This document shows, piece after piece, positions 24,722 to 42,255 of a DNA stretch of 64,000 bases. The DNA lies in the NCBI GenBank assembly GCA_035690365.1, contig DASSKP010000028.1, positions 11,483 through 75,482 of the forward strand. The letters are read 5' to 3'. The notes beneath the pieces were generated by a model. The model was given only the letters and a program-made list of their open reading frames with translations, had not been told where the DNA came from and searched no databases. This DNA comes from Mycobacteriales bacterium (GTDB taxonomy: Bacteria > Actinomycetota > Actinomycetes > JAFAQI01). The position numbers were made by a program, and so were the translations under genes. Positions within the stretch are counted from its first letter, which is position 1. Each line of letters starts with the position of its first letter.

Positions 24722-24795
24722 ATCCTAGGGAGGTCGCACCCTCCCGCTGCTTGTCATCGAGCCCCGCCGGTGCCGGCGTTATGCTGCCGCCAGCC

Positions 24796-25833: not shown

Positions 25834-27719
25834 AGATCCGGCCGCACTTCGCGATGCAAGGCACGAAGCCGCGACTTCTCCTGCGGCAGCCACTCCGACC
25901 GGACGTAGTCGATCACGTTGACGCCGTCGGTCGAGTCGACCCGGACGAGTCCGTCCGGTAGCCGCTGGCCGTCGGCGGCCAGTGCCTGGAAGACCTCCAG
26001 CTCTCGCCGCTTGCGGCTGGTGCGTCCGCTCGCGGTGAAGTCGGCGTCGGACCAGTGCGCGAACTCGTCGACGTCCAGATGCTTGAGCTCGACACACGAC
26101 CAGTCCGGAAGAGAGATGGTCCGTCCCGCCTCCGGCCAGGTCGACAGCTCCCACTCGAACGCCTTGGAGTGCTCGTAGCCCTTGCGATTCGGCCACGCCC
26201 AGTACTCCCGGTTGGCCACCCATGCGTCGAGATACGCGGTGTTGTCGTTGGCGACGTACAAGGGGTAGCGCGGCATCACCACGACGAACTCGCCGGTCTC
26301 CGTCTGCCACTCGAGGTCGCGCAACGCGGCGATGCCCGTGTCGGTCAGCACCATGTCGCCGTCCCACTTCAACGCGTAGGTCGTCGGCACGTGGGAGAAG
26401 GCCCAGTTGTAGAAGTAGGTCAGCGAGTGGATGGAGTCCGCTGCGGTGCCGAGATGCTCCGGCCCGCAACGCGACACGCTGAACGGGTAGGTCAGCACCT
26501 CGAACCGGTCGGCGGCGCCCGCTTCCGCTGCGAGACGCTGCGCCACCTCGGGTGTCCCGTCGGTGGAGCCGTTGTCGACCAGCAGCACTGAACGCACGGC
26601 GGCGAACAGCCACGGCAGCACGAACGGCAGTGCGTTCGCCTCGTTCTTGACTCTCAGCACGGCGGTGAACCCCGGCTGCAACGGAGCGTCCTCCGCCCAT
26701 CGCCAGCTGATGTCGAACGCGGACTCACCCTCACGGTTGACGATCGCGGCCTTCGCCGCGCGGCCCGCCCCGGCGGCTGTCACGCCCGTCAGCTCGCGCT
26801 CGAGCTCACGCACCCTCTGGCGCAGCCGCTGCGCCTCGTCGCCGGTGATGCCCTCTCGCACAGCGAGTCCGAGGACGCCGATGCGCGAGTGACGGTCCGC
26901 GAGTGCGTGCACGGCAGGCAGGAGCTGCTCGGTCTCCGGCGCCCATCGCTCGTCCGCAGGGCCGGCCTCGACAGCCGGGTAGCCGAAGGCGTCGAAGTCG
27001 CCGCGGTAGACGTGGTTCACCGTGGCGGCGGCCTCGGCGTCGTAGGCGTCCGACGGCATGCGGATGAGAGCCGGGTTGTCGCGGCCCGGCCGCGCCGCAC
27101 CGGTGAGCTCCTCGCCCACGTGTTCGGCGAGCAACGTCAAGGTCTCGTCCAGCCGCTCGATCCGCCCGACGTGCGTCAACGGCAGTGCGTCGGTGAGCTC
27201 GTGCTGCACCGCCCAGTGCACGTCGTGCGGTCCGCTCGGTCCGAGAGCGGCGACAAAACGACGGAAGTCGGCGACGACGTCGTCCGGCTTGCCCGGCATC
27301 CTCGGGAACCACGGCTCGGCGCCGAAGTCGTGCACGAACCTGGGCTCGCGCAAAAGCAGCTTCGACTGCCATGCGGACCACAGGCGAGCCGCCGGGTCGC
27401 GGACGAGCGCGAACCGGAGCCAGCCTGGCTCGGTCAGGGCGCGCTCGCGCAGCTCCGGCGACAGCGAACCGAGCTGATGAGACGGGCCCCACACGCGCAT
27501 GTCGTGCACGGTCAGCTCGCGGGTGACCTCGCCACCGGTCGACCGCTCGAACCGTTCGCGGGGGAGGCCGGCGAGTCGGGCGAGCAGCCACAGCACCGAC
27601 GTGCATCCGGTCTTGGGCACCGGGAGGAAGAGCAGCTTGCGGTCCGGCAGCACGATCGTGCGCGACAGGAGGTGTTCGCTGTGCGGATGTGTGTCGGCCC
27701 GGCGGGCCTCGTCCGTCAT
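25818..27719 (-). CDS. Fusion protein: N-terminal sulfotransferase (Sulfotransfer_2-like), a central helical linker and a C-terminal GT2-like glycosyltransferase
   Basis: The N-terminal part has LFLPVPKTGCTSV, ALVRDPAARLWSAW and YRGDFDAFGY. The middle has a coiled-coil-like segment, EAQRLRQRVRELERELT. The C-terminal part has VLRVKNEANALP...LLVDNGSTDGT and WDGDM. Confidence 0.7.
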   Translation of the reverse strand: MTDEARRADTHPHSEHLLSRTIVLPDRKLLFLPVPKTGCTSVLWLLARLAGLPRERFERSTGGEVTRELTVHDMRVWGPSHQLGSLSPELRERALTEPGWLRFALVRDPAARLWSAWQSKLLLREPRFVHDFGAEPWFPRMPGKPDDVVADFRRFVAALGPSGPHDVHWAVQHELTDALPLTHVGRIERLDETLTLLAEHVGEELTGAARPGRDNPALIRMPSDAYDAEAAATVNHVYRGDFDAFGYPAVEAGPADERWAPETEQLLPAVHALADRHSRIGVLGLAVREGITGDEAQRLRQRVRELERELTGVTAAGAGRAAKAAIVNREGESAFDISWRWAEDAPLQPGFTAVLRVKNEANALPFVLPWLFAAVRSVLLVDNGSTDGTPEVAQRLAAEAGAADRFEVLTYPFSVSRCGPEHLGTAADSIHSLTYFYNWAFSHVPTTYALKWDGDMVLTDTGIAALRDLEWQTETGEFVVVMPRYPLYVANDNTAYLDAWVANREYWAWPNRKGYEHSKAFEWELSTWPEAGRTISLPDWSCVELKHLDVDEFAHWSDADFTASGRTSRKRRELEVFQALAADGQRLPDGLVRVDSTDGVNVIDYVRSEWLPQEKSRLRALHREVRPDLYRRR

Positions 27720-27795
27720 TGCACCTCCAGCGTCGCGACCAGTCTAGGAACGCGGGTCGGCTGGTAACCTGACCGCGCCCCGACGAGAGGACCAG

Positions 27796-28848
27796 ATGGA
27801 CGGCGCGACGAGCCCCTCACGTCGCTCGATCGTCTTCGTCGCCGGGTCCGGGCGCAGCGGCACGAGCATGTTCTCCGGGATCCTCCAGCGTCTCGGCTAC
27901 GCCATCCCGCAGCCTGAGGTGCCGGCGGACGACAGCAACCCCAAGGGGTTCGCCGAGTCGCGGTGGGTCGTCGACTTCCACGCGCGGTTGCTGCGGACGG
28001 CGCAGGTGCAGACCGCCGATGCGCGTCCGACCGCATGGACCGACACGATGGCGGCGAGCACGGATGCTGTCGCCGAGGAGCTTCGCGCGTTCCTCAAAGA
28101 GCAGTTCAGCGCCGCCGATCACGTGCTGATCAAGGACCCGCGACTGATCTGGTTCCTGCCGCTGTGGCGACGTGTCGCGATCGACCTCGGCGTCACGCCG
28201 CGATTCGTCACGATGCTGCGCCACCCCGCTGCCGTCATCGACAGCAAGAGCCGGCACTACGGCGCCTGGGCCGACGTCGCGGGTGACGTCAGCCGGACGG
28301 CGGGCTGGATCAACACGATGCTCTACACCGAGCGGGCGACGCGTGAAGGACTGCGCATCGCCGTGCAGTACGAAGACCTGCTGGCCGACTGGCCCAAGAC
28401 GATCGCGAGGGTGTCCGACGCGCTGACGCTGGAGCCCGTCGCCACGGCCACGGCGACCCGGATCCGCGCCGCCGAGGCATTCGTGGATCCCTCGCTTCGC
28501 CGGTCGTCGTCCTCCTGGGAAGGACTCGGCATCCCGGCTGCTCTGCAGGAGCAGGCGGAGCACGTGTGGAGCCTCCTCACCCGGCTGACGGAGGACGACG
28601 CGGACGTCGACGAGCTCAGCCGCTCGCTCGACGAGGCTCGCGAGAGCTACATCACGCTCTACCAGGAGGCCGAGGCCATCGCGCAGGCCTCCATCACGGC
28701 CGCGGCCCGGCGCCGCGACCGGGCAGCCAAGAAGGCAGCGGCCAAGCCGGCACCGTCCGCGTTGCGCCGCGTGGGCCGCAAGCTGCCGCCCAGGTGGAAG
28801 CGGCTCGCCCGCAGCTGGATCGACAGGAGTCCCGCGCGCAGCGCGTGA
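27796..28848 (+). CDS. Sulfotransferase family protein, paralog 2
   Basis: The motifs are VAGSGRSGTS, IKDPRLIWFLPLW and LRHPAAVIDS. It is colinear with the paralogs at 24796 and 32304. Confidence 0.7.
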   Translation: MDGATSPSRRSIVFVAGSGRSGTSMFSGILQRLGYAIPQPEVPADDSNPKGFAESRWVVDFHARLLRTAQVQTADARPTAWTDTMAASTDAVAEELRAFLKEQFSAADHVLIKDPRLIWFLPLWRRVAIDLGVTPRFVTMLRHPAAVIDSKSRHYGAWADVAGDVSRTAGWINTMLYTERATREGLRIAVQYEDLLADWPKTIARVSDALTLEPVATATATRIRAAEAFVDPSLRRSSSSWEGLGIPAALQEQAEHVWSLLTRLTEDDADVDELSRSLDEARESYITLYQEAEAIAQASITAAARRRDRAAKKAAAKPAPSALRRVGRKLPPRWKRLARSWIDRSPARSA

Positions 28849-28860
28849 CACACTCCGGCT

Positions 28861-30015
28861 GTGGACTTCCGGCTGAGCGACGAGCACGAGTCGCTGCGCA
28901 AGACGGTCGAGCAGTTCGCGCGCGAGGTGGTCGCGCCGCAGGCTGTGGAGTCGGACCGCGAGGAGCGCTTTCCGTACGACGTCGTACGTCAGATGGGCGA
29001 GCTGGGCCTGTTCGGTCTGCCGTTCCCCGAGGAGTACGGCGGGATGGGTGGCGACTTTCTCGCGCTGTGCCTGGCGATCGAGGAGCTCGCACGGGCGGAC
29101 TCCTCCGTCGCGATCACGCTCGAGGCCGCCGTCGGTCTGGGCTCCATGCCGGTGTTCCGGTTCGGCAGCGAGGAGCAGAAGCAGCGGTGGCTCCCCGAGC
29201 TGTGCGCCGGCACCGCGCTCGCCGCGTTCGGTCTCACGGAGCCCGGTGGTGGATCGGACGCCGGCAACCCCAAGACGAAGGCGGAGCTCGACGGTGCCGA
29301 GTGGGTCATCGACGGGTCCAAGTCCTTCATCACCAACTCCGGCACCGACATCACCAGCCTCGTCACCGTCCTCTGCCGGACCGGTGAGCGAGCCGACGGG
29401 CGCCCCGAGCTCACGTCGTTGATGGTTCCGGTCCCGCACGAGGGCTTCCGCGCCGGTCAGAAGTACTGGAAGGTCGGCTGGCACGCGTCCGACACCAGGG
29501 AGCTGGTCTTCGAGAGCTGCCGGGTGCCGGCGGACAACGTGCTGGGTGAACGCGGCCGTGGCTATGCGCAGTTCCTCTCGACGCTCGACGAGGGCCGTAT
29601 CGCGATCAGTGCTCTGGCGGTCGGGCTCGCCCAGGCGTGCGTCGACGAGGCGGTCCGTTACTCGAAGGAGCGGGAGGCGTTCGGGCAGCGCATCGGCTCC
29701 TACCAGGCGGTCGCCTTTCGCATCGCGGACATGCAGATGCGCACACACGTGGCTCGGCTGGCCTACTACGACGCCGCTGCCCGAATGGCCGCCGGCGAAC
29801 CGTTCAAGCAGGAAGCGGCGATCGCGAAGCTCTACTCGTCGACGATCGCCGTCGACAACGCGCGCGATGCGACGCAGGTGTTCGGCGGCTACGGCTTCAT
29901 GAACGACTACGCGGTCGCGAGGCACTGGCGCGATGCGAAGATTCTCGAGATCGGTGAGGGCACGAGCGAGGTGCAGCGGCTGCTGATCGCGCGCGGCCTC
30001 GGCCTGCCGGTCTGA
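28861..30015 (+). CDS. Acyl-CoA dehydrogenase
   Basis: The full-length ACAD pattern is present: GLTEPGGGSDAG, a C-terminal FGGYGFMNDYAVARHWRDAKILEIGEGTSEVQ and a catalytic Glu context. It has a GTG start. Confidence 0.9.
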   Translation: MDFRLSDEHESLRKTVEQFAREVVAPQAVESDREERFPYDVVRQMGELGLFGLPFPEEYGGMGGDFLALCLAIEELARADSSVAITLEAAVGLGSMPVFRFGSEEQKQRWLPELCAGTALAAFGLTEPGGGSDAGNPKTKAELDGAEWVIDGSKSFITNSGTDITSLVTVLCRTGERADGRPELTSLMVPVPHEGFRAGQKYWKVGWHASDTRELVFESCRVPADNVLGERGRGYAQFLSTLDEGRIAISALAVGLAQACVDEAVRYSKEREAFGQRIGSYQAVAFRIADMQMRTHVARLAYYDAAARMAAGEPFKQEAAIAKLYSSTIAVDNARDATQVFGGYGFMNDYAVARHWRDAKILEIGEGTSEVQRLLIARGLGLPV

Positions 30016-30093
30016 CCCGACGCGACGGGTCCGGCACCCGCAGTCCGGTAGCCTGATCGGGTCGATGAGCGGGCACGACGACGGAGGAGGAGC

Positions 30094-32307
30094 TTGACCA
30101 CCGCGCGGCCCGTGGGCGACTCCGAGGACGCAGTGGTGCTGTCCATGGTGTTCGCCGTACACGGCGACCAGGCCTATCTCGACGGTGCCGTTCGCTCGGT
30201 CCTCGAGCATCCGGGTCGAGACGTCGAGGTCGTCGTGGTCGACAACGGGTCGACCGACCACGTGCCCGAAGTCCTCGCGGAGCTGAGCCAGCTCGACGAC
30301 CGGATCGTGCCGATTCGGCTCGACGAAGCGGTGCCGCAAGGCACCGCGCGCCAGGTCGGCCTCGAGGCGGCTCGCGGTCGCTATGTCTGGTTCATGGACG
30401 CGACCGACCTCCTCCAGCCCGGCGCGGTCGCGGCGGTGGTCCGGTTGGTCGACCGCCGGTCGCCCGACGTGGCGGTGCTCGACTTCGTGACCGGGGGGTC
30501 GCTGGCCCTGCTGCCCAGCCCCCACAGCCCGCTCGTGCGCCGGATCGCTGCCGCGGGGTCCGTGTCCGTGGAGGCGATGCCGGAGCTGCTCGACCTCGCT
30601 CCCTGGTGGTGGAGCCTGGTGGTCAAGAAGGCGCTGCTCGACGAGTGGGGGATCGACCAGCGCGGCCAGCGCTCGGATGCCGCGTTCGGCTACTGCGCTC
30701 TGCTCGCGGCGGGTGAGGTGACGGCAACGGCATCCGCGCTGTACCGGCGACGTCGGCCGTTCAACACGGTGAACTCCCCGGCGGTGACCGGCGACGAGAA
30801 GGACCTCCTCGACGCGGTTGCCACCGTCTTCAGCTTTCTCTCCGCGCATCCGGTCATCGCGGACCGGCGCCGGTTCGCGACCGGGCGGATCGTCGGTCTG
30901 GCCACGCAGCGACTGAACCGCCTCCCGGCGTCGCGACGCCGTGATTTCGCCGAGCGACTGATCGAGGTCAGCCGGCGGCAGATCGGCCCCACAGACGCGC
31001 TGCCGCCGGGTCGGGTCACGGCTCTCCGGATGCGGCTGGTGCGAGGCGGGCACCGCACGGCGTACCTCGCGGTCGAAGCCGCGCTCCGCATCGCGCGCAG
31101 GCTGGTCCTGGCTTCCGGGCGCTTTCGGGCCCGTCTTGCGCCGCGGCTCGCGCGGGTCGTCGAACGGCTGCGGCTCCTGGAGTACTCCCTGCACCGCCGG
31201 TTGCCGTTGCGCCGCGACCTCGCCGTCTTCGCTGCGTACTGGTACCGCAGCTACGCCTGCAACCCCCGCGCCATCTACGAGAAGCTGCGCGAGCTGGCTC
31301 CAGAGGTCCGCGGCGTGTGGGTGGTGCTCCCTGGCGTCAAGGTCCCCGACGGCGTCGACTCCGTCGTCGTCGGCACGCGCGCCTACTACCGCCTCCTCGC
31401 CCGGGCGACCTACTTCGTCAACAACGTGGGCTTCCCGGACCACTGGAAGAAGCGTCGCGGCACTGTGCTTCTGCACACCCATCACGGGACGCCGTTGAAG
31501 AAGATGGGCCTCGACCAGTACGACGTCGGCGGCCCGCTGCAACGCCCGCTGCCGGCGAAGCACCTGTCGCGTTGGCAGCGCTGGGACTACAGCCTGTCGT
31601 CCAACCTGTTGTCGACGTTGGTCTGGGAGCGCGTCTACCCGGCGGCCTACCGCACGTTGGAGTACGGCTACCCCCGCAACGACCGGCTCGTCACCGCCGG
31701 CGCAGACGAGGCCGCGCCGATCAAGGCGGCCCTCGGCATCGAGGCGGACCGCAAGGTGCTTCTTTATGCGCCGACGCACCGCGAGTACGAACGCACGTTG
31801 CGGCAGATTCTCGATCCGGTGGCGTTGGCCCGCTCGCTCGGTGACGATTGGGTGATCCTGTCGCGAGCGCACTACTACAACGCCACGGGCCAGCCGATCG
31901 CGAAGCTGGCCGGCGGCAGGGTGGTCGACGTCACGTCGTACGAGTCGGTCGAGGAGCTGTGCCTCGCTGCTGACGTGCTGGTCACCGACTACTCGTCCAT
32001 CATGTTCGACTACGCCGTCCTCGACCGGCCGATCCTCATCTACGCGCCGGACTGGGAGATCTACCAGCTGCTGCGCGGCACCTACTTCGACTTGATGAAC
32101 GAGGCGCCCGGCGTCGTGTGCCGGACCCAGGCCGAGCTCGCCGAGGCGCTGACGTCCGGTGCCTACTGCGGTGACGTCGCCACCAAAGCGCTGGAGCTGT
32201 TCCGCAATCGGTTCTGTGCATGGGAGGACGGGATGGCCGCAGAGCGGGTCGTTCGGCGGCTCTTCCTGGGCGAGCAGCCACCTCTACCTCTGCGTCCGCC
32301 CGCGTGA
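30094..32307 (+). CDS. Bifunctional GT2 glycosyltransferase / TagF-family glycerophosphotransferase
   Basis: The N-terminal part is GT2 (VVVVDNGSTD, FMDATD). The C-terminal part is Glyphos_transf (LLHTHHGTPLKKMG, LLYAPTHREY, VLVTDYSSIMFDYAVLDRPILIYAPDWEIY..RGTYFD). It has a TTG start with a strong upstream GGAGGAGGA. Confidence 0.85.
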   Translation: MTTARPVGDSEDAVVLSMVFAVHGDQAYLDGAVRSVLEHPGRDVEVVVVDNGSTDHVPEVLAELSQLDDRIVPIRLDEAVPQGTARQVGLEAARGRYVWFMDATDLLQPGAVAAVVRLVDRRSPDVAVLDFVTGGSLALLPSPHSPLVRRIAAAGSVSVEAMPELLDLAPWWWSLVVKKALLDEWGIDQRGQRSDAAFGYCALLAAGEVTATASALYRRRRPFNTVNSPAVTGDEKDLLDAVATVFSFLSAHPVIADRRRFATGRIVGLATQRLNRLPASRRRDFAERLIEVSRRQIGPTDALPPGRVTALRMRLVRGGHRTAYLAVEAALRIARRLVLASGRFRARLAPRLARVVERLRLLEYSLHRRLPLRRDLAVFAAYWYRSYACNPRAIYEKLRELAPEVRGVWVVLPGVKVPDGVDSVVVGTRAYYRLLARATYFVNNVGFPDHWKKRRGTVLLHTHHGTPLKKMGLDQYDVGGPLQRPLPAKHLSRWQRWDYSLSSNLLSTLVWERVYPAAYRTLEYGYPRNDRLVTAGADEAAPIKAALGIEADRKVLLYAPTHREYERTLRQILDPVALARSLGDDWVILSRAHYYNATGQPIAKLAGGRVVDVTSYESVEELCLAADVLVTDYSSIMFDYAVLDRPILIYAPDWEIYQLLRGTYFDLMNEAPGVVCRTQAELAEALTSGAYCGDVATKALELFRNRFCAWEDGMAAERVVRRLFLGEQPPLPLRPPA

Positions 32308-33332
32308 GCGCCGGCGACCGGAGGCTGCTGCTCGTGGTCGGCATCGGCCGGAGCGGCACGAGCATGTTCACCGGGATCCTCGGCCAGCTGGGCTGGCACG
32401 TGCCACAGCCCGAGGTGCAGGCCGACGACACCAACCCCGCCGGATTCGGCGAGCCGCAGTGGGTCGTCGACTTCCACAAGCAGCTGCAACGATCCTGCCG
32501 GGTCACCAACATGGACTCGCGGCCGGCAGCTTTCGATCTCGCTGCGGCGAAGGCGACCGACCCGCAGGTCGTCACCCGGTTGCGCGAGTGGCTCGGCGAG
32601 CAGTTCGAACAGTCCGCGCACGTCGTGGTCAAGGACCCGCGGGTGGTGTGGTTCCTGCCGTTGTGGCAGCAAGCCGCGGCCGACCTCGGTGTGGAGACGT
32701 CGTTCGCGACGATGCTCCGGTACCCGACCGAGATCCTGAAGAGTGCTCGGACCTGGTACGGCGCATGGCAGAGCGACGCGAGCCGCGCGGCCAGCTGGCT
32801 CAACGTGATGTTGCGCACCGAGCAGCTGACCCGAGGCGCACCACGCGCGTTCGTGCGCTACGACGAGCTGCTGTCCGACTGGGAGGCGCAGATCACGCGG
32901 ATCGCGGCGCCACTGCGGGCCGAGTGGATGGCCGACCTGTCGCCGTCCGGACGCGACGCCGTCAACGAGTTCGTCGATCCCACGCTGCGCAGGTCGCAGG
33001 TGGGATGGGACGAGATCGTGGTTCCCGAAGTCGTCCGGTCGATGGTGGACCTCGCCTGGGAACGGTTCGTGCCGCTGGCGGCCGGCAGCAGTGAACCGGC
33101 AGATGCCGCTCGCCCGCTCGACGAGCTGGCAGAGCGCTACCAGCAGTTCTACGCGGAGGTGGAGGCGACGGCGCAGTCCTCGATCCACGCGGCCCGACGG
33201 CTGGCGCCGGCGGCGCCCAAGCCACCGCCGCCGCCCCCGACCCGCCGCCAGGTGCTCGCTCGGCGGATGCCGGCCCGAGTGCGTGCGCTCGTCCCGGTCC
33301 GGCTTCGCCGGCGAATGCTCGGGCGAGGTTGA
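32304..33332 (+). CDS. Sulfotransferase family protein, paralog 3
   Basis: The motifs are VVGIGRSGTS, VKDPRVVWFLPLW and LRYPTEILKS. The GTG start overlaps the upstream stop as GTGA. Confidence 0.7.
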   Translation: MSAGDRRLLLVVGIGRSGTSMFTGILGQLGWHVPQPEVQADDTNPAGFGEPQWVVDFHKQLQRSCRVTNMDSRPAAFDLAAAKATDPQVVTRLREWLGEQFEQSAHVVVKDPRVVWFLPLWQQAAADLGVETSFATMLRYPTEILKSARTWYGAWQSDASRAASWLNVMLRTEQLTRGAPRAFVRYDELLSDWEAQITRIAAPLRAEWMADLSPSGRDAVNEFVDPTLRRSQVGWDEIVVPEVVRSMVDLAWERFVPLAAGSSEPADAARPLDELAERYQQFYAEVEATAQSSIHAARRLAPAAPKPPPPPPTRRQVLARRMPARVRALVPVRLRRRMLGRG

Positions 33333-33336
33333 CGAC

Positions 33337-34449
33337 GTGCCGCGGGTCAGTGTCGTCGTACCGATCTACAACGTCGAGCCCTTCCTCGAGGAGTGCCTGC
33401 AGTCGGTCGAGACGCAGACGTTCACGGACTTCGAGGTCGTCATGGTCGACGACGGCTCCACCGACGGAAGCGCTCGGATCGCGCGCGAGTTCGAGCAACG
33501 CGACGGCCGCTTTCGTCTCGTGCAGCAAGCCAACGGCGGCCTCGGCTGCGCACGCAACACGGGCATCGACCGGTCGGTCGGCGACACGATGCTGTTCCTC
33601 GACAGCGACGACGTGCTGCCGCCGGACGCGCTCCAGCTCCTGCTGACGGCGCTGGACACGAGCGGGTCGGACTTCGCAACCGGCAACGTCTGGCGGATCC
33701 GGCCAGCCGGCCTCATGCCGTCCACGTGGCTGGCTCCGGTGTTCGCAGAGTCCCGCCTGGCGACGCACGTGACGAAGTTCCGCCCGTTGATCGCCGACCG
33801 GTTGGCGTGCAACAAGCTGTGGCGTCGGTCCTTCTGGGACGAGCACGGTTTGCGCTTCCCCGAGGGCGTGCTGCACGAGGACATCTACGTCACGGTGCCC
33901 GCGCACTTCCTGGCGCGTTCGGTGGACGTCGTGAGCGAGCCGGTCTACTACTGGCGGGCCCGCGTCGGCGACGTTCGCTCGATCACCCAGCGACGGACCG
34001 AGATCACCACGATCCAGCACCGGCTGGCGGCGATCGACCACGTTCGTCAGTTCCTGCGTGCGCAGCAGCTGCCCGAGGCGCTCCGCTGGTACGACGCCAG
34101 TGTCGTCGCCGACGACCTCCGGCCGTTCATCACCTTGCTCCTTCGCGCCGACGAGGACTATCGCCGGCAGTTCCTCGACCTGGTCAACGACTTCCTCGAC
34201 GACACCGACCCGAGCATCTTCGACGAGCTCCCGCCGGACGAGAGACAACGCTGGGAGCTCGTCCGCGCCCGGGACCTCGACGGACTCTTCGCCCTCCTCC
34301 GCCGTCAGCGCCGCGAAGGTCGGCAGACGCCCGTGGACGTCCAGCCGCCGACGCTCGTGGAACGCGTCGCACGGCGTGTTCCACAATCAGTACGCAGACT
34401 CGTGCCGAGAAGCGTCCGGCGTCGGCTGTTGCGACCAGGCGGGAGATGA
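33337..34449 (+). CDS. GT2 family glycosyltransferase
   Basis: The motifs are VSVVVPIYNVEPFLEECLQS, VVMVDDGSTDGS, NGGLGCARN and LDSDD. The GTG lies 4 nt after the upstream stop. Confidence 0.8.
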   Translation: MPRVSVVVPIYNVEPFLEECLQSVETQTFTDFEVVMVDDGSTDGSARIAREFEQRDGRFRLVQQANGGLGCARNTGIDRSVGDTMLFLDSDDVLPPDALQLLLTALDTSGSDFATGNVWRIRPAGLMPSTWLAPVFAESRLATHVTKFRPLIADRLACNKLWRRSFWDEHGLRFPEGVLHEDIYVTVPAHFLARSVDVVSEPVYYWRARVGDVRSITQRRTEITTIQHRLAAIDHVRQFLRAQQLPEALRWYDASVVADDLRPFITLLLRADEDYRRQFLDLVNDFLDDTDPSIFDELPPDERQRWELVRARDLDGLFALLRRQRREGRQTPVDVQPPTLVERVARRVPQSVRRLVPRSVRRRLLRPGGR

Positions 34450-36079: not shown

Positions 36080-37329
36080 CGCGTCCCGCCGCCGACCCTG
36101 TCGAGCTCGTTGCGTGGAGCGTCGAGGTCGACGACCCCGGCGATCTGCTGTCGTGGCTGCCGGCCGGAGACGCCTATGCGTTCCTTCGCGGCGGCGACGG
36201 CATCGTGGGCTGGGGCGTCGCCGCGCGGCTGCCGCTGACGCGATCGCCGCGCACCGGCAAGGAGATCGCCGAGGAGACTGAGCGGCTGCTGTCGTCGATG
36301 ACGGTCCGCGACGACGTGGCCGTTCCGGGCAGCGGCCCCGTGGCCCTCGTCAGCCTTGCCTTCGACCCTGCCGAGTCAGGGTCCGTGGTCGTCGTACCGA
36401 AGGTCATGCTGGGTCGGCGTGACGGCCGCAGCTGGCTGACGCTCGTCACCCCGCAAGGCGCGGTCGCGGTGCCGCGGCTGCGCCGACGGCCCACGTCGGC
36501 GGCTCGACCCGTCGATGCTCACCTGTGCGCTCAGGTGCCCGCAGAGGACGAGTGGCGCGACAGCGTGGCGATCGCGGTCGAGCGCCTGCGCCGCGACGAG
36601 ATCGAGAAGGTCGTGCTCGCTCGCGCGGTCGACGTCGAGGCGGCGCAGCCGGTCGATCCCCGCGTCGTCGCGGCGCGGCTCTCCGAGCGGTTCCCAGCTT
36701 GCTTCACCTATGTCGTCGACGGCCTCGTCGGCGCCTCGCCGGAGCTGCTCGTCCGTCGCACCGGACGGCAGGCGGAGTCGCTCGTACTCGCGGGATCGGT
36801 CCGTCGAGGTGCTTCCGCGGAGGAGGACGCGCAGCTGGAGGCCGGCCTGCTCGCGTCGGCCAAGGACGGGCACGAGCACCGGCTCGCCGTGGACTCGGTA
36901 CGCGACACGTTGGCCCGCGTCGCCGTGGACGTCGCCACCGACCCCGCACCGCAAGTCGTCCGACTGGCGAACATCTCGCATCTGGGCACCCTGGTGCAGG
37001 CGTGGCTGCCGCAGCCGCCGCCGTCCGCCATCGGCCTGGCCACGACGTTGCATCCCACCGCCGCCGTCGGCGGCGTGCCGAGCAGTGACGCACTGACGAT
37101 GATTCGCGAGCTCGAGGCCGCGTCCCGGCAGCGCTACGCCGGGCCGGTCGGTTGGGTCGACGCCAACGGCGACGGCGAGTTCGCGATCGCGTTGCGCTGC
37201 GCGCAGATCGACGGTCGGCGGGCGCGAGTCTGGGCAGGAGCAGGCGTCGTCGCGGAGTCGCAGCCCGAGGCCGAGGTCGCGGAGACGACCGTCAAGCTCG
37301 AGGCAGCGCTCGGCGCCTTGCTGGGCTAG
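36076..37329 (+). CDS. menF: Isochorismate synthase
   Basis: The chorismate-binding C-terminal motifs are [18 protein letters not shown] and [13 protein letters not shown]. The GTG overlaps the purE stop as GTGA. Other men genes lie nearby. Confidence 0.8.
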
Positions 37330-39410
37330 CTGCCGGCGAGTTTGAAGTAGATGCACGACCGGTCGGCGCCTACGCGCGTGTAGCCGGCCGACTGCAGTGC
37401 GGTGCTCCGGTGCAACCGTCGCGAGTGAACCATCGAGCGGCTCAGGCACACCGCGGCAACCGGCCAGGTGCGCAGCTCGGTGGCCGCAGCGTCGGGCTGC
37501 AAGCGCGACCCCGCGCCGCCCAGCCACATGGTGAGCAGCTCGCGCTGCTTCATGCGGAAGCTGCTGCCGGCTCGCGCCGAGATCAGATGTCCGTAGTAGG
37601 TGCGGGCGTCCAGCGGGTGTACGCGAGTGGTCGTGAGCCCCGCGGCAAGAGACACCTGGGTGGGTCCGGCGACGACCGCGTCGTCGGGCGCGAGTCGCAC
37701 CAGGTGCCGAGCGGCACTGAGCGACGCCGGCGCGATGTCCCACCTCGGCCGCGACTCGAACGTCGTGTTCCTGGACGACCACAGCGGCGTCTCGAAGACA
37801 GCCAGGAGTACGACGAGCACGGCGGCGAACGCCGGAGCCGTCGCGCGGGTCAGCGGCGCGCCGATCCGTAAACCGAAGCTGTCGACGGCCGACGGCACGA
37901 GCGCCAGCAGCAAGGGGAGGGGGGCGACCCAGAGCACGCGCCACGCGGTCGGTGCGCCGCCGAGAAGCGGGCCCGCCTTGCCGAGCACGCCGGGCGCCAG
38001 CGTCAGCATCACGGCCAGGCTGCCGCCACCGAGCATCAGCTTTCCGGCGAGTGTCCGAGCGCCGAGGAAGCCGGCCACCAGCGCGAGGCCCGCCGCGAAC
38101 CCGACCACGCCGTTGCCGACGAACCACTGCCAGATGTCGTAGGAGATCTTGTAGTGGGCAACCGACGTCGAGCTGAACGCCGACGACGAGCCGCTGAGGC
38201 GGTAGGCCGCGAGACAGATGATGGGGTAGGCGAGGGCGGCGCCGACGATCGCGAGCATCCTCTTGCCGCATGCGAGGTAGCCGGCGATGCCGGCAGCGAC
38301 GAGCGCGACCGGTGCGAGTCCTGCCGCGGACGACGAGAAGCCGAGCGCGGCGATCGTTGCCGCCGCGAGGAGCGCCGGCGCGCGCCAGCCGCGGCGGTGG
38401 GCCGAGAGAGCGGCGTAGGTGTAGATCAGCGGCACCATCGCGGCGGCGAAGAACTCCTTCGTCTGCCACGACCGCCGGAGCACCATCATCCCGAACCACT
38501 GCGGTCCTCGGGAGGTGAGCACGAGGAAAGCGACCACCACGAGCATGCCGAGCACGGGACGGCGTACGCGCAGGCCGACGAGGCAGCGCCACAGCACGAG
38601 CGGCATCAGTGCGGCGAGGATCGGCCCGAGCAGCATGTAGTCGACTGATGGACCGGCGACACCGAGCACGTGCGCGATGCCGCCGGCGAACGTCTCGAAG
38701 GTGCCGATCGCCGGTTGGTAGAGCGTCGGGAAGACGTTGTTGCCGAACATCGTGTCCCGGTCGGGGATCGCACCATGCTGTGCGATCCAGGTGACGCGGT
38801 TGACGTAGTAGGCGTCGTCGGGGTCCGGTGACACCGCGAAGAGTGCGAAGAGCCCGAACGCGATGCCCGCGACGACAGCGATGAGCAGTGCATACGCCGC
38901 GGCCCGACCGGAGGGCCCGGTGACGATCTCGTGTTCCGGGGCCGATCCGTCGTCGTCGGCGGAGCGCCGGCTCAGCAGCAGCGCCAGCAGGCCGACGACC
39001 AGGCCGACGAGAGCGACCGCCCATCCGAGCCGCCAGACGACGCGGTGCGGAACGGCGAGCAGGAGGGCAGCGACGGCGACGAGCAGTGCGAACGCCAGCA
39101 CGGCGCGGCGGCTCGGTCTCGGGCGGGTCGACAGGCGCCGCAGCCAGCCCGGTCGCTCGTCACCGTCGGCCACGGGCCCCGGCGCCAGCCGGTGCACCAG
39201 GAACAGTGGCAACGGAAGGGTCAGCACCCAGACCAGCAGCAACGGGTCGACGCGCAGGTTGGCGATGTCCCACACGTGGGCGAGCACCGTGAACCACGCG
39301 AACGCGACCACGCCGCCGTCGACGGCGGCGATGACCGCACGGACCAGCGGCGTCCGGCCGGGTGCCCGCTCCGCTGTCGGTGCTGGCCGCTCGGAGCTCG
39401 TCGCCGTCAC
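37326..39410 (-). CDS. Large polytopic membrane protein, paralog B; putative GT-C-type glycosyltransferase/polymerase
   Basis: The 694 aa product is colinear with 19753..21804, including SPDPDDAYYVNRVTWIAQHG, PAIGTFETFAG, RRSWQTKEFF, GSSSAFSST and LLGGAPTAWR. Its start overlaps the stop of the upstream GT2 gene. Confidence 0.7.
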   Translation of the reverse strand: MTATSSERPAPTAERAPGRTPLVRAVIAAVDGGVVAFAWFTVLAHVWDIANLRVDPLLLVWVLTLPLPLFLVHRLAPGPVADGDERPGWLRRLSTRPRPSRRAVLAFALLVAVAALLLAVPHRVVWRLGWAVALVGLVVGLLALLLSRRSADDDGSAPEHEIVTGPSGRAAAYALLIAVVAGIAFGLFALFAVSPDPDDAYYVNRVTWIAQHGAIPDRDTMFGNNVFPTLYQPAIGTFETFAGGIAHVLGVAGPSVDYMLLGPILAALMPLVLWRCLVGLRVRRPVLGMLVVVAFLVLTSRGPQWFGMMVLRRSWQTKEFFAAAMVPLIYTYAALSAHRRGWRAPALLAAATIAALGFSSSAAGLAPVALVAAGIAGYLACGKRMLAIVGAALAYPIICLAAYRLSGSSSAFSSTSVAHYKISYDIWQWFVGNGVVGFAAGLALVAGFLGARTLAGKLMLGGGSLAVMLTLAPGVLGKAGPLLGGAPTAWRVLWVAPLPLLLALVPSAVDSFGLRIGAPLTRATAPAFAAVLVVLLAVFETPLWSSRNTTFESRPRWDIAPASLSAARHLVRLAPDDAVVAGPTQVSLAAGLTTTRVHPLDARTYYGHLISARAGSSFRMKQRELLTMWLGGAGSRLQPDAAATELRTWPVAAVCLSRSMVHSRRLHRSTALQSAGYTRVGADRSCIYFKLAGS

Positions 39411-40453
39411 AGCCTGCTGTCGTCCGCGGCGTGCCGGGACATGTGCTCGGCGTTGTTGGCCGCGATCTGCAGCAGGTCACGGCGCAGGGTGCGCGTGCGT
39501 TCGAGCAGCCAACCGGACGTCAGCAGCAACATCGCGACGATGAAGGTCGCGGTGCCGGCGATGAAGCTCGGGAAGCGCTCCACCTTGCCGGTCTGGAAGT
39601 ACTCCACGATCGGCGGGATGACCAGCACGAGTGTCGCGACGAACCACACCGAGGACAGCGCCGCGAAGGCCACAAAGGGCTGGAGATCGCGGTGCAGACG
39701 GAAGATCGCGCGCAGGATCGACAGACCGTCGCGGTAGGTGGAGAGCTTCGAGGAGCTGCCCTCCGGACGGGCGCCGTACGACGCCGGCATCTCGGCGTAG
39801 GCGAAGTCCATGGCGACCGCGTGGCTCGCGATCTCCACCTCGAGCTGGAAACGCTTCGACCGCACCGGGAACGACGCCACGAACCGGCGGCTCATCGCCT
39901 TGTAGCCGGTGAGGATGTCGCTGAGGCGGATGCCGGTGAGGGTCCGTTGCAGCGACGTCAGCGCCTTGTTGCCGATCTGGTGACCGCTGCGGTAGGTGGC
40001 GGTGTCCATCTCGCCTTCGTCGGTCACCCGCTGCACGTTGACGAGGTCGTAGCCCTCGCAGAACACCTTGTGCACGAGAGCCGGGGCGACGCTGGGGTCG
40101 TAGGTCGCATCGCCGTCGACGAGGAGGACGACGTCCTCGTCGACGACCTCGAAGGCCCGGCGGACCGCCCGCCCCTTGCCGGGGTTGGGCACCTGCAGCA
40201 CGTCAGCGCCTGTTGTGCGCGCACGCTCCGTGGTGTCGTCCGTCGAGAGGTTGTCGACGACGACCATGCGCGCCCGCGGCAGGACTTCGCGGAAGCCGTT
40301 GACGACGGCCGCAACGGTGGTTCCCTCGTTGTGGCAGGGAACGACCACGGCGACCCTTGCATCGGCGCACCGGGGACACGGTGTCGGAACCGGTTGGGTC
40401 ACCGGTGCAGGCTCCTTGCGAGAGGTGGGGGGCGCCTCGACGGGCTGACTCAA
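39407..40453 (-). CDS. GtrB/Ppm-like GT2: putative polyprenyl-phosphate sugar synthase
   Basis: The GT2 core motifs are VVVPCHNEG, VVVDNLSTDDT, GKGRA and LVDGDATY. Two C-terminal TM helices give the architecture of bactoprenol/dolichol-phosphate glycosyltransferases. Confidence 0.8.
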   Translation of the reverse strand: MSQPVEAPPTSRKEPAPVTQPVPTPCPRCADARVAVVVPCHNEGTTVAAVVNGFREVLPRARMVVVDNLSTDDTTERARTTGADVLQVPNPGKGRAVRRAFEVVDEDVVLLVDGDATYDPSVAPALVHKVFCEGYDLVNVQRVTDEGEMDTATYRSGHQIGNKALTSLQRTLTGIRLSDILTGYKAMSRRFVASFPVRSKRFQLEVEIASHAVAMDFAYAEMPASYGARPEGSSSKLSTYRDGLSILRAIFRLHRDLQPFVAFAALSSVWFVATLVLVIPPIVEYFQTGKVERFPSFIAGTATFIVAMLLLTSGWLLERTRTLRRDLLQIAANNAEHMSRHAADDSRL

Positions 40454-40587
40454 GGTTACGTCACGACTCGCGCCGTTCCCGGCAGGCCCGGCTCCGGACG
40501 ACGCGTGGTGGCGGTTGCCTCCACGGGCAACGGGTGCGTTCCGCGCGATCGGAGCGGCCGGGGCGGCGCGGTTCGCTAGGCTCCCGC

Positions 40588-42255
40588 ATGCTCATGAGAA
40601 TTGCCGTCAGCAGGGTCGCTCGTCTGGACCTCGCGGCTTGTCTGGGCACGGTCGTCGTCTTCCTCGTCGCCCAGGCCCTGCTGCTGCACGGCCCCCAGCC
40701 CTACGACCCGGGCAACTACTTCCGCTCGGCTCTGAACTTTCCGAACGTCCCGGCAGATGCGTGGACGCTGCGGATCGGCCTGATGGGTCCCTTGGCGATG
40801 ATCGTCCGCTCGCTGGGCCCGTCCGAGCTCACGTTGTTCGCCATCCCTGTGACTGCCTCGGCCGTGCTCGCGGCGTCGGTCTTCGGCATCATCAGGGTGC
40901 TCTTCCACGACCGGCTGGTCGCGGTGTGCGCGGCGCTGGTCGTCGTGCTGAACCAGGACTACCTGCTGGATTCGACGTCGCTGTTCCCCGACGTGCTCGC
41001 CACCGCGGTGTTCGCCGCCGGACTGTTCTTCCTGCTGCTCGCCCGCGATCGTGAACAGCCGGTCCTCGAGGATCAGCCGGCCCTCGAGGATCAGCCGGGC
41101 GATCGGAAGCGACGCCGACCCTCCGCGCCGACCGTCGCGGCCGCAGTCGCCGGTGCGCTGTTCGGCTGGACCTATCTGATCCGGGAGTTCAGCCCGGTCC
41201 TGTTCCCTGTCGTGCTCCTCGCGCTCGTGCTGTGGAGATATCCCCGGCGACGAACGCTCGTCGTCGTCGGGTCCGCCGCCATCGTCATCTGCATCGAGTT
41301 CGTCTACGGATACGTGCGCTACGGCAACGCGCTGGAACGCCTCAAGGTGCTGACCACGCTGCGCTCATCGCACGAGCTGGCTCAATGGACGCCCTACTTC
41401 AAGCGGGTGCACAACATCCCGGAAGCTGCGTGGGTCCTGCCCCGCACCTTGCTGACCTGGCGCACGGGCTGGCCGGTGCTGCTCCTGCTGGTGGTGTTCA
41501 TCGTGGGAGTGGCCCGCTTCAGGGACAGGCGGCTGTGGCTGCTGGCTGCCTGGCTGGGCATCTACTGGGCGATGATGGCGGTGCTCGGCGGGGTGCGGAC
41601 GAAGTACGGCGCGCCGCGACTGGGTATCGGCTACGTGCGCTACTGGTATCCCGCACTGCCGGCCTTCCTGATGGGCGGCATTGCCGCGGTCTGGCTTTTC
41701 GTGCGCGGCTCCGGTGACCCGCCGCCCCGACGGCGCAAGGTTGCCCATCTCGCCGTGGTCGTCGTCGCTCTTGCGGCCGTCGTGCCGGGTGTTGTCGAGT
41801 ACTCCGGCTGCGAGTCGAAGGACGTGTGGGACACCGAACCGCTGCAGCGTTGGGAGCAGGTGGCCGGGTGGCTCGCCACGCCGACAGCGGCGCGTTACGA
41901 CCGGATCATGTCCGACGTCCCGTCACGGCGGATGCTGCCGGCGTTCACGCGCACCGCCATCGGCAAGATCGTGTGGCACGGGAAGCTCGGCGTCATCCCA
42001 CTGGGTGACCTCAGCCTTCGCCCATCCCGCGACACGCTCGTGCTGGTCGATCGGCGGCATGGTCCGACCGACATCATGCAGCGACTCGGCCCGCACTGGT
42101 CGCTGACGTTCGTCACCTCCGATGGCGTCATCGGGATCATGGCCAAGCATGTACGGAGCGCCAGCCCGGCTGCCTTGATGCGCTGGCAGCTGCCGCCCAC
42201 CGGCTTTCACGGGCAGGCCGACACCTGCGGGGTCAGCCCTTACCGCGTCTACTGA
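40588..42255 (+). CDS. Polytopic membrane protein with a C-terminal extracytoplasmic domain; possible GT-C (ArnT/PMT_2-like) glycosyltransferase
   Basis: The product is about 555 aa with at least 9 hydrophobic segments and a soluble tail of about 170 aa. The gene is divergent from the GtrB-like gene. No unambiguous catalytic motif was recognised. The ATG at 40588 follows a 134 nt intergenic region. Confidence 0.5.
   Translation: MLMRIAVSRVARLDLAACLGTVVVFLVAQALLLHGPQPYDPGNYFRSALNFPNVPADAWTLRIGLMGPLAMIVRSLGPSELTLFAIPVTASAVLAASVFGIIRVLFHDRLVAVCAALVVVLNQDYLLDSTSLFPDVLATAVFAAGLFFLLLARDREQPVLEDQPALEDQPGDRKRRRPSAPTVAAAVAGALFGWTYLIREFSPVLFPVVLLALVLWRYPRRRTLVVVGSAAIVICIEFVYGYVRYGNALERLKVLTTLRSSHELAQWTPYFKRVHNIPEAAWVLPRTLLTWRTGWPVLLLLVVFIVGVARFRDRRLWLLAAWLGIYWAMMAVLGGVRTKYGAPRLGIGYVRYWYPALPAFLMGGIAAVWLFVRGSGDPPPRRRKVAHLAVVVVALAAVVPGVVEYSGCESKDVWDTEPLQRWEQVAGWLATPTAARYDRIMSDVPSRRMLPAFTRTAIGKIVWHGKLGVIPLGDLSLRPSRDTLVLVDRRHGPTDIMQRLGPHWSLTFVTSDGVIGIMAKHVRSASPAALMRWQLPPTGFHGQADTCGVSPYRVY
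41056..41100 (+). repeat. 18-bp tandem duplication (about 2.5 copies) inside the CDS
   Basis: The sequence is CAGCCGGTCCTCGAGGAT / CAGCCGGCCCTCGAGGAT / CAGCCGGGC, encoding QPVLED-QPALED-QPG in a loop of the 40588..42255 product. Confidence 0.9.

Follow-up and report, generated by a model that had tools for sequence, protein, structure and literature searches.

The window analysed here (a stretch of 64,000 nucleotides from a soil bacterium of the Mycobacteriales) contains a GT2 glycosyltransferase gene that overlaps the gene of a large polytopic membrane protein, which raises the question of whether the former makes a lipid-linked sugar donor for the latter. An earlier note had proposed such a pairing of a donor-maker with a GT-C-type transferase, and the proposal is supported by the analysis described below. 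Systems combining a GT2, a flippase and a GT-C enzyme are already established (PMC8035078, PMC5836110); the mechanism is a known one, and the newly recognised part would be the DUF6077 family as GT-C-type transferases.

The GT2 gene and its junction with DUF6077 paralog B

Both open reading frames were located on the minus strand of the window sequence, with DUF6077 paralog B at 37326..39410 and the GT2 ending at 39407, as previously described. However, the 5΄ end of the GT2, earlier placed at 40453, had been over-extended: the TTG at 40453 is merely the longest possible start (348 aa), and this form was absent from the public collection, where ENA lists 331 aa starting at 40402 and NCBI and JGI list 313 aa starting at 40348. 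An AAGGAG Shine–Dalgarno sequence lies 9 nt 5΄ of the GTG at 40402, which is the likely start of a 331-aa protein (39407..40402).

The GT2 matched Glycos_transf_2 in Pfam (8.5e-17) and belongs to the polyprenyl-/dolichyl-phosphate hexose synthase class (GtrB/DPMS/AglJ-like). Its best NCBIfam match was AglJ (TIGR04182; 6.8e-51, full length), followed by Dol-P hexose transferase, PpgS and ArnC; none of these scores reached its equivalog cutoff. The sequence matches of the GT2 in the PDB included the Pyrococcus furiosus DPMS (5mlz) and ArnC. In haloarchaeal N-glycosylation, AglJ serves as dolichyl-phosphate hexose synthase. The alignment with AglJ runs end to end and includes the C-terminal membrane region (residues 34–326 against model positions 2–288 of 293), but at 173 bits the score stays short of the cutoff (325), so the GT2 is not an equivalog; moreover, it is bacterial, and its expected carriers are polyprenyl instead of dolichyl lipids. 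Two hydrophobic segments (residues 261–279 and 294–312 in the numbering of the 348-aa frame) bear out the two C-terminal transmembrane (TM) helices that had been noted. The GT2 is probably an enzyme that attaches a sugar to a lipid carrier in the membrane.

At the junction (...AGG CTG TGA), paralog B starts at a GTG that lies within the end of the GT2 gene, so that the two genes share the four nucleotides GTGA (39407..39410, minus strand); NCBI (HET7310563.1) and JGI call the same start and a protein of 694 aa. This overlap indicates that the GT2 and paralog B are co-transcribed. The translational coupling that the earlier note had read from it is possible, but overlaps of this kind are common in the window, with at least three more of 4 nt: TTGA between an accD-like gene and paralog A (19753–19756), GTGA between TagF and GT4 genes (23513–23516) and ATGA between menA and menC (45762–45765). 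Because paralog A likewise overlaps an apparently unrelated acyl-CoA carboxyltransferase gene, the overlap is weak and non-specific evidence for a functional pairing.

Predicted folds of paralog B and protein C

Paralog B matched PF19554 (DUF6077; 7.6e-16), a family that forms no fewer than 3,119 clusters at 50% identity and for which we found no literature. It carries the motif SPDPDDAYYVNRVTWIAQHG at residues 194–213, as had been reported, and is predicted to have ~15 TM helices, with an alpha/beta domain of ~135 aa at the C-terminus. The AF2 model, built on a 12-sequence alignment, had a pLDDT of 74.5 and a pTM of 0.72, with low pLDDT (33–72) in the putative catalytic loop. In a Foldseek search with this model, the top 10 matches were all GT-C enzymes (probability 1.0, TM-scores 0.39–0.48), and the GT-C matches comprised DPY19, AftA, STT3/PglB, Emb and ArnT, whereas other membrane proteins reached probabilities of at most 0.33 and TM-scores below 0.2. 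WaaL, Wzy and SEDS-type enzymes were absent from the top 50 structural matches. A fold unlike GT-C had been named in advance as refuting the pairing, and the only confident matches were GT-C enzymes.

The model shares with DPY19 (7zli), AftA (8if8) and STT3/PglB (6ftg, 3rce) the GT-C order of a TM helix, an acidic motif, an external loop containing two short helices and further TM helices, as well as a C-terminal extracytoplasmic domain, although sequence identities were only 11–15%. No profile-level similarity of paralog B to PDB entries was found, and DUF6077 showed no sequence relationship to YfhO or to any other GT-C Pfam family. D198, D199 and D219 were invariant in 156–158 of 159 DUF6077 representatives, and in the model their loop, with two short helices, directly follows a TM helix. 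Since the density of K+R was 0.20 in predicted inner loops and 0.06 in outer loops, the motif comes to lie on the outer side by the positive-inside rule, and the Asp198/Asp199/Asp219 loop is predicted to face outward. Structure prediction, together with the gene-neighbourhood statistics presented below, indicates that DUF6077 proteins are outward-facing sugar transferases of the GT-C type that act on the cell wall, a family not recognised until now.

A third GT-C, from a different family and divergent from the GT2, lies beside it and was passed over in the earlier note: protein C (40594..42255, plus strand; 553 aa; HET7310565.1, a 'hypothetical protein' at NCBI). Protein C itself had no Pfam match, but PMT and PMT_2 were matched by 16 and 12 of 42 members of its family, respectively. 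Its AF2 model (pLDDT 89.8, pTM 0.92) matched AglB, ArnT, ALG12/9, Pmt4 and PglB in Foldseek, and the best-fitting structure was ArnT (TMq 0.58), consistent with an ArnT/PMT-like GT-C. The intergenic region of ~190 bp that separates it from the GT2 (40403..40593), in which we found no sigma-70-like consensus, is presumed to be a common regulatory region. As a candidate client of the GT2, protein C is as plausible as paralog B.

Gene linkage in the window and across DUF6077 loci

Paralog A (19753..21804, plus strand; 683 aa; HET7310549.1) is 48% identical to paralog B over the full length. The only GtrA-family gene in the window, encoding a small membrane protein and putative lipid-linked-sugar flippase (21811..22293, minus strand; PF04138, 3.9e-25), is convergent with paralog A, 6 bp from its end and 15 kb from paralog B, just as had been observed. 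The arrangement of paralog A, GtrA and GT4 is kept in locus L009, and GtrA-like genes adjoin DUF6077 not only in the window and in L009 but also in L020, L022, L027, L046, L082 and L085. The candidate acceptor-polymer genes at 22341..34449, assigned by Pfam matches, encode a GT4, a TagF-like glycerophosphotransferase, four sulfotransferases, an acyl-CoA dehydrogenase, a GT2–TagF fusion and a GT2 with a TarS linker; orthologous sulfotransferases are neighbours of protein C, GT2 and DUF6077 in L002, L020, L032, L054, L064 and L071. These data fit the suggestion that the system is split across the locus and that one synthase serves several transferases.

The pairing had also been made to depend on conserved adjacency in other genomes. 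Using a DNA pattern that samples approximately one-quarter of the DUF6077 family, we found that 23 of 55 de-replicated DUF6077 loci had a synthase-class GT2 nearby; among the 27 with 4 kb of flank or more, the number was 16. The GT2 was directly 5΄ of DUF6077 on the same strand in seven independent loci and adjoined it in another orientation in four more; in several such loci no other GT-C lies between them. By contrast, none of 23 control loci, which were not taxonomically matched, had such a GT2 (0 matches in 117 kb versus 8.3 expected; Poisson P ~2.5e-4). The adjacency thus survived this test. In L002, from a Gaiellaceae MAG, protein C, GT2 and DUF6077 form one co-directional block, and the trio is conserved across actinobacterial classes. 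Protein C also adjoins DUF6077 in L012/13, L032/33, L060 and L063.

The linked GT2s are mutually similar (E 1e-50 to 1e-116 to the L002/L003 seeds) and best match Dol-P hexose transferase, PpgS, AglJ and ArnC, with DPMS and ArnC as structures. They are ~30% identical to the window GT2 and mostly lack the TM hairpin; the recurrent partner is a different lineage. In the two closest homologs of paralog B (P0003, 57%; P0002, 56%), the upstream gene is LpqB or a small ORF and not a GT2, and among DUF6077 loci with sufficient flank approximately half are without one.

A candidate pathway, its alternatives and related systems

We consider the following pathway, taken as a whole, to be reasonably probable. 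The GT2 would be held in the membrane by its C-terminal two-helix hairpin and would transfer a hexose from a nucleotide sugar to polyprenyl phosphate at the cytoplasmic face. GtrA would flip the lipid-linked sugar, and GT-C-fold enzymes would pass it to an extracytoplasmic acceptor, with the invariant Asp loop as the putative catalytic site. The transferring enzymes would be paralog B, probably paralog A, and the unrelated protein C, and the acceptor is most likely a glycerol-phosphate-containing, possibly sulfated wall polymer encoded at 22–34 kb.

The GT2 might instead serve protein C or other PMT-like GT-Cs, whereas paralog B might use another lipid-linked donor, such as polyprenyl-P-mannose or decaprenyl-P-arabinose, with the overlap reflecting operon packing only. 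ArnT, the closest structural match of the confident GT-C protein C, is the classic partner of the ArnC synthase; a PMT/PMT_2-like GT-C lies directly 3΄ of the GT2 in L022, L027 and L097 and is apparently fused to it in L054/L057 (DUF6077 being 1.4–2.9 kb away in these loci); and L015 has the GT2 with protein C but without DUF6077. The GT2-free closest homologs of paralog B, the abundance of 4-nt overlaps and the structural match to AftA, which uses decaprenyl-P-arabinose, point the same way. We nevertheless regard this explanation as somewhat unlikely in view of the loci where the GT2 precedes or adjoins DUF6077, and DUF6077 also occurs in Gaiellaceae, Nocardioides and Acidimicrobiia, which, to our knowledge, lack arabinogalactan. 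Both readings may also hold at once, since a single synthase can supply the two enzymes.

It is quite improbable that DUF6077, while GT-C-like, polymerises, ligates or exports a teichoic-acid-like polymer from a polyprenyl-diphosphate-linked or other substrate instead of adding monosaccharides, and that the GT2 directly helps to assemble the polymer in the cytoplasm. The moderate fold matches of paralog B include STT3/PglB, which use diphosphate-linked oligosaccharides, and DUF6077 adjoins ABC2-type exporter, GT4, TagF-like and Wzx-like genes, forms tandem arrays of 2–3 copies (L032, L033 and L063) and in approximately half of the loci lacks a synthase-type GT2. However, the GT2s associated with DUF6077 look throughout like synthases of monophosphate-lipid sugars and not like polymer-building GT2s; GtrA, a family tied to the flipping of monophosphoryl sugars, recurs near DUF6077; and WaaL, Wzy and SEDS-type enzymes are missing from the top 50 structural matches. 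That the adjacency is meaningless, with unrelated envelope genes packed into a cell-wall neighbourhood, appears highly improbable: GT2 genes are generally abundant in cell-wall loci, and the overlap of paralog A and the nearest homologs of paralog B fit such packing, but the linked GT2s form a specific rather than a generic group, the control DNA lacked them and the trio recurs in L002.

The preferred pathway shares its three-step logic and GT2 architecture with GtrA/GtrB/GtrC, the O-antigen glucosylation cassette of Shigella phages, and ArnC/ArnEF/ArnT, which modifies lipid A. ArnC structures match the partner GT2s and ArnT best fits protein C, but those systems are compact three-gene cassettes of Gram-negative bacteria acting on LPS, whereas the window genes are dispersed over 20 kb.

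An order-level relative is the PpgS (Rv3631)–Rv3632–Rv3779 system of Mycobacterium tuberculosis, which, according to the summary in PMC3485146, decorates arabinogalactan with GalN through a GT2 polyprenyl-P-sugar synthase, a small membrane protein and a GT-C transferase encoded at separate genomic sites, similar to the split arrangement here. With the PpgS model, the match was 2.3e-11 for the window GT2 and reached 4.5e-28 among the partner GT2s, although all scores were far below its equivalog cutoff (370 bits), and the gene surroundings here are teichoic-acid-like and not related to arabinogalactan. The CsbB/GtlA–GtcA–YfhO/GtlB systems of teichoic acid glycosylation in Bacillus, Listeria and Staphylococcus (PMC5836110, PMC7389260, PMC8035078) are alike in having a GT2 with a C-terminal TM anchor that makes C55-P-sugar, a GtrA-family flippase and a polytopic GT-C acting outside. 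They act on a glycerol-phosphate polymer, and the window locus is flanked by TagF-like genes. In contrast to these teichoic acid systems, the GT-C here (DUF6077) has approximately four extra N-terminal TM helices, the host is actinobacterial, two or three GT-Cs of two unrelated families share one locus, and sulfotransferases are part of the recurrent cassette.

Predicted fold and candidate active site of DUF6077

DUF6077 (PF19554) is the sole Pfam match of paralog B, a 694-aa protein (37326..39410, minus strand). Word-indexed searches with B, run with the single sequence and then with a profile, gave only 11–12 proteins, since the candidate list of such searches fills up with hydrophobic words; an exhaustive profile search was needed to obtain the size of the family. 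This search returned no fewer than 3,119 clusters (50% identity, E ≤ 1e-3), of which 1,220 reach E ≤ 1e-30. Nearly all of the cluster proteins are full-length (about 650–700 aa), and the family occurs mostly in soil metagenomes. DUF6077 carries no functional annotation, and neither name was mentioned in the literature that we searched. By sequence, the family is isolated: 12 members matched no other Pfam family even at E values up to 1, DUF6077 falls outside the described GT-C families of Pfam (PMT, PMT_2, Arabinose_trans, AftA, STT3, YfhO and others), and sequence and profile searches against PDB sequences found no match.

We computed an AlphaFold2 model of B from a 12-sequence alignment (mean pLDDT 74.5, pTM 0.72) and compared it with the PDB using Foldseek. 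The best ten matches were all GT-C enzymes, namely the C-mannosyltransferase DPY19 (E = 4e-5), the arabinosyltransferase AftA (E = 7e-5) and eukaryotic and bacterial oligosaccharyltransferases including STT3 and PglB; EmbA/B/C, AftB and ArnT came after the top ten. Probabilities of the GT-C matches ranged from 0.84 to 1.0 and TM-scores from 0.39 to 0.48, compared with at most 0.33 and less than 0.2, respectively, for unrelated transporters. With all confident matches of the model being GT-C proteins, a GT-C fold is predicted for DUF6077. Compared with canonical GT-Cs, about four extra TM helices (residues 21–146) appear to precede the GT-C core in the model.

Three acidic residues were near-invariant in an hmmalign alignment of 159 DUF6077 representatives: Asp198 (158/159), Asp199 (156/159) and Asp219 (156/159). 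In the model, the loop that carries them follows helix 168–191 and holds two short helices, a layout like that of the catalytic first external loop of GT-C enzymes. The density of lysine and arginine in B is 0.20 in predicted inner loops versus 0.06 in outer loops, so that the positive-inside rule would place this loop outside the cell. The conserved acidic residues are found at the start of the first predicted extracytoplasmic loop of the GT-C core, and the DD...D loop is a candidate for the catalytic site of DUF6077.

Among the DUF6077-related loci on other contigs (numbered L002, L009 and so on), two or three DUF6077 genes were observed in tandem beside a homolog of protein C, the membrane protein encoded beyond the GT2 gene (L063, 1806–7754; L032, 1199–5148; L033, 2559–5808). 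These arrays point to repeated duplication, possibly with differing acceptor or linkage specificities.

The upstream GT2 gene and its recurrence at DUF6077 loci

The window has a G+C content of ~70%, and exact matches of its proteins (NCBI HET73105xx) trace it to a metagenome-assembled 'Mycobacteriales bacterium'. The GtrB-like GT2 gene and the 694-aa ORF of B named in the earlier note are both found on the minus strand, and the TGA stop of the former overlaps the GTG start of the latter in GTGA at 39407–39410; NCBI and JGI call the same start for B. The 5΄ end that had been given to the GT2 gene is the one part of its extent that we do not retain: TTG at 40453 is only the start of the longest ORF, and was rejected as the start codon since AAGGAG lies 9 nt upstream of GTG at 40402 and public calls are shorter (331 or 313 aa). 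The 348-aa form was not found in the public collection. The gene probably starts at GTG 40402, which gives it the extent 39407..40402.

The GT2 protein contains a Pfam Glycos_transf_2 domain (8.5e-17, residues 36–191) with a DxD motif (VDGDATYDP), and hydrophobic segments at residues 261–279 and 294–312 agree with the two C-terminal TM helices previously described; it thus has the catalytic domain with DxD and the C-terminal TM hairpin by which GtrB/DPMS-type enzymes are recognised. Its best curated-family match was AglJ (6.8e-51, end-to-end), with 173 bits against a cutoff of 325, followed by the haloarchaeal Dol-P hexose transferase (78 bits, cutoff 375), PpgS (44 bits, cutoff 370) and ArnC (24 bits, cutoff 529), and it reached the equivalog threshold of none of these four models. 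All of these best curated matches attach sugar to dolichyl or polyprenyl phosphate, and the PDB sequence matches include Pyrococcus DPMS (5mlz, aligned over residues 32–255) and ArnC. Sequence class and architecture fit a membrane-linked GT-A-fold polyprenyl-phosphate sugar synthase.

We collected DUF6077 loci from reference genomes (6) and metagenomes (62 confirmed), the latter found by a DNA pattern that we designed by hand to encode DDx[FY]Y-13aa-PxRD and that captures only about one in four family members, and de-replicated them at 90% identity into 55 clusters. Culturable bacteria with DUF6077 include Nocardioides speluncae YIM ART13 and N. litoris DSM 103718 (loci L003 and L005). A small GT2 gene was present in the available flank of 23 of the 55 clusters, and of 16 out of 27 with at least 4 kb of flank. 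By comparison, none of 23 taxonomically unmatched control loci, which were chance matches of the pattern totalling 117 kb, contained a GT2 gene, versus 8.3 expected (Poisson P about 2.5e-4). The GT2 gene was directly adjacent to DUF6077 in 11 clusters, and 7 of these show the arrangement of the window, with the GT2 gene immediately upstream and on the same strand. Genetic linkage of a putative synthase with the predicted GT-C thus recurs across genomes (23/55 versus 0/23).

The GT2 proteins near DUF6077 on other contigs resemble one another (E values of 1e-50 to 1e-116), and give their best matches with Dol-P hexose transferase, PpgS, AglJ and ArnC as well as the DPMS and ArnC structures. This recurrent partner type and the window GT2 share only about 30% identity. 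The partners usually lack the two-TM hairpin; their C-termini instead show a conserved ...TWWRE sequence. In some loci (L022, 4560–6107; L037, 5034–6908; L086, 1–2169; L097, 3052–4926), the partner also seems to be extended at its N terminus by about 300 aa of polytopic sequence, with the conserved motifs RWGxWRWL ... WWPVAGxLGxTALLRGRRGR. GtrA-like genes likewise recur beside DUF6077.

At three loci (L022, L027 and L097), the gene directly after the GT2 encodes a PMT/PMT_2-like GT-C of about 505 aa, and in L054/L057 a single 763-aa ORF seems to hold both the GT2 and a PMT_2-like domain; DUF6077 lies 1.4–2.9 kb further off in this group, often past an epimerase or GtrA gene. Since PMT-like GT-Cs follow the GT2 or appear fused with it, the synthase would be common to several GT-C families and not dedicated to DUF6077. 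The ORF at 6679–8970 of L054 (and 4559–6334 of L057) comprises a Dol-P-hexose-synthase-like GT2 domain and a C-terminal polytopic region weakly matching PMT_2. Natural fusion of a donor synthase and a GT-C transferase is one possible origin of this ORF, and a sequencing or assembly artefact another.

Protein C, paralog A and GtrA

Protein C (40594..42255, plus strand), a 553-aa 'hypothetical protein' absent from the earlier note, is encoded divergently from the GT2 gene at a distance of about 190 bp. The window protein itself has no Pfam match; among 42 homologs, PMT was matched by 16 and PMT_2 by 12. Its model (pLDDT 89.8, pTM 0.92) matched AglB, ArnT (TMq 0.58), ALG9/12, Pmt4 and PglB, and all confident Foldseek matches were GT-C proteins, so that a polytopic GT-C-fold transferase is predicted. 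Sequence and profile searches against PDB sequences found no match. That protein C might be a third DUF6077 paralog was rejected, as BLAST found nothing and hhalign of the two families gave a probability of 12%; protein C belongs to a GT-C family other than DUF6077. The putative synthase is consequently flanked by two candidate GT-C clients of unrelated families. Homologs of protein C abut DUF6077 in L012/13, L032/33, L060 and L063, and in L002, which belongs to a MAG of the Gaiellaceae and thus to another class of actinobacteria, two sulfotransferases, protein C, GT2 and DUF6077 follow one another in one compact block.

The other DUF6077 paralog was also confirmed: paralog A (19753..21804, plus strand) is 48% identical to B, and the gene for the GtrA-family putative flippase assigned to its side is indeed next to it (21811..22293, minus strand; PF04138, 3.9e-25; bit score 88.8, cutoff 26.1), with 15 kb between it and the GT2 gene. 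An acyl-CoA carboxyltransferase gene (18194..19756) precedes paralog A, and its TGA stop shares 4 nt (TTGA) with the TTG start of paralog A (19753). The result of an independent gene caller agrees with this overlap, and the arrangement is the same on a related contig; on the independent contig L009, the order carboxyltransferase, DUF6077, GtrA, GT4 is repeated. At paralog A, a gene of lipid metabolism and one for a predicted envelope GT-C form a conserved pair.

Overlaps of 4 nt also occur at TagF/GT4 and menA/menC. Because the junction of paralog A with the carboxyltransferase gene and these two others have the same form, we rejected the 4-nt overlap as specific evidence of functional coupling. 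A scan of 37.0–42.6 kb found no promoter-like site and no excess of terminator-like sites over shuffled sequence, and Rfam and tRNA scans of the window gave no matches. At its other end, the stop codon of B overlaps that of a convergent isochorismate-synthase-like gene (plus strand, end 37329) by 4 nt (37326–37329), so that a terminator would not fit between the two genes.

Proposed pathway and its wall-polymer setting

The region between the DUF6077 paralogs encodes a GT4, a TagF-like CDP-glycerol glycerophosphotransferase, four sulfotransferases, a GT2-TagF fusion and a GT2 with a TarS linker, a gene content that, judged from sequence, is that of a teichoic-acid-like wall polymer. No relation to this cluster is apparent for the purK/purE and menaquinone genes, which lie between and beside the modules. 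The four sulfotransferase genes were observed within 24751–33332. Two of them have close orthologs (E values of 1e-100 to 1e-210) directly beside protein C, GT2 and DUF6077 on several unrelated contigs (L002, 361–3356; L020, L032, L054, L064 and L071). This arrangement suggests that a cassette for a sulfated wall glycopolymer has been conserved; the recurrent linkage of DUF6077 with sulfotransferase and TagF-like genes points towards a wall polymer not characterised so far. According to a 2026 paper (PMC13390465), sulfated polysaccharides in bacteria were believed to be essentially limited to cyanobacteria. The Actinoplanes gsf cluster of that paper was rejected as a described homolog, as its 11-TM protein has no InterPro domain and is thus not DUF6077; it is a loose analogue only.

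In the reading that we consider probable, for which we infer every step, the GT2 would make a polyprenyl-phosphate hexose on the inner leaflet, GtrA would flip the lipid-linked hexose, and B would move the sugar to a wall polymer outside the membrane, with the DD...D loop as its catalytic site; paralog A and protein C would probably carry out the same outside transfer. The logic of these steps is that of established multi-component transmembrane glycosylation systems (PMC8035078, PMC5836110). The separation of components has a counterpart in M. tuberculosis, where PpgS/Rv3632 and the GT-C Rv3779 are likewise at separate loci (PMC3485146).

We weighed three other readings against this pathway. 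The linkage of synthase and DUF6077 is recurrent but not universal, and is missing at the nearest homologs of B: the two closest (56–57% identity) have LpqB or a small ORF upstream and no GT2. A fortuitous adjacency of GT2 and B would be consistent with this, and given the enrichment over control loci we regard it as very improbable. It is less far-fetched, and still unlikely, that the GT2 primarily serves protein C while B takes another donor. The window GT2 gene has the gene for this second predicted GT-C close by. The seven clusters with the GT2 immediately upstream of DUF6077 argue for B as a client.

The remaining alternative concerns the role of DUF6077 itself. It could be a polymerase- or ligase-like GT-C relative, a possibility that we rate as low. 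We retain, as the probable reading, the transfer of a GtrA-flipped hexose onto a wall polymer by DUF6077. A broader proposal, which we put forward as speculative, is that DUF6077 and protein C represent two unrecognised GT-C families, which together with a dedicated Dol-P-hexose-synthase-like GT2, GtrA and the conserved sulfotransferase pair would form a cassette widespread in soil Actinobacteria (Mycobacteriales, Gaiellaceae, Nocardioides and others), building or decorating a sulfated teichoic-acid-like wall glycopolymer of a class undescribed there. In this proposal, the two- to three-copy tandem arrays and the extra N-terminal four-helix module suggest that DUF6077 might be more than a simple decorating enzyme.

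Multi-component transmembrane glycosylation systems are best known from Firmicutes and Gram-negative bacteria, and these results would extend them to a new enzyme family in Actinobacteria. The type of system is already well known; because its mechanism is conventional, the result is useful rather than surprising to specialists. New are the GT-C assignment of DUF6077, its candidate active site and its statistical link to the synthase, GtrA, a second GT-C family and sulfotransferases. The assignment provides a directly testable function for thousands of genes, and with it come predicted catalytic-loop candidates (D198/D199/D219) and a statistically supported synthase partner.

Two further proteins of the window were observed. 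The 633-aa protein at 25818–27719 combines a Sulfotransfer_2 domain at its N terminus with a weak GT2-like signal below threshold (residues 350–410), and is the cassette member most strongly conserved across loci (E = 1e-210 in L002). At 56215–58971, a 918-aa secreted protein has an N-acetylmuramoyl-L-alanine amidase/PGRP-like region, recognised by eye from the translation, followed by long Thr/Ser/Ala-rich repeats; it seems unrelated to the synthase and GT-C genes.
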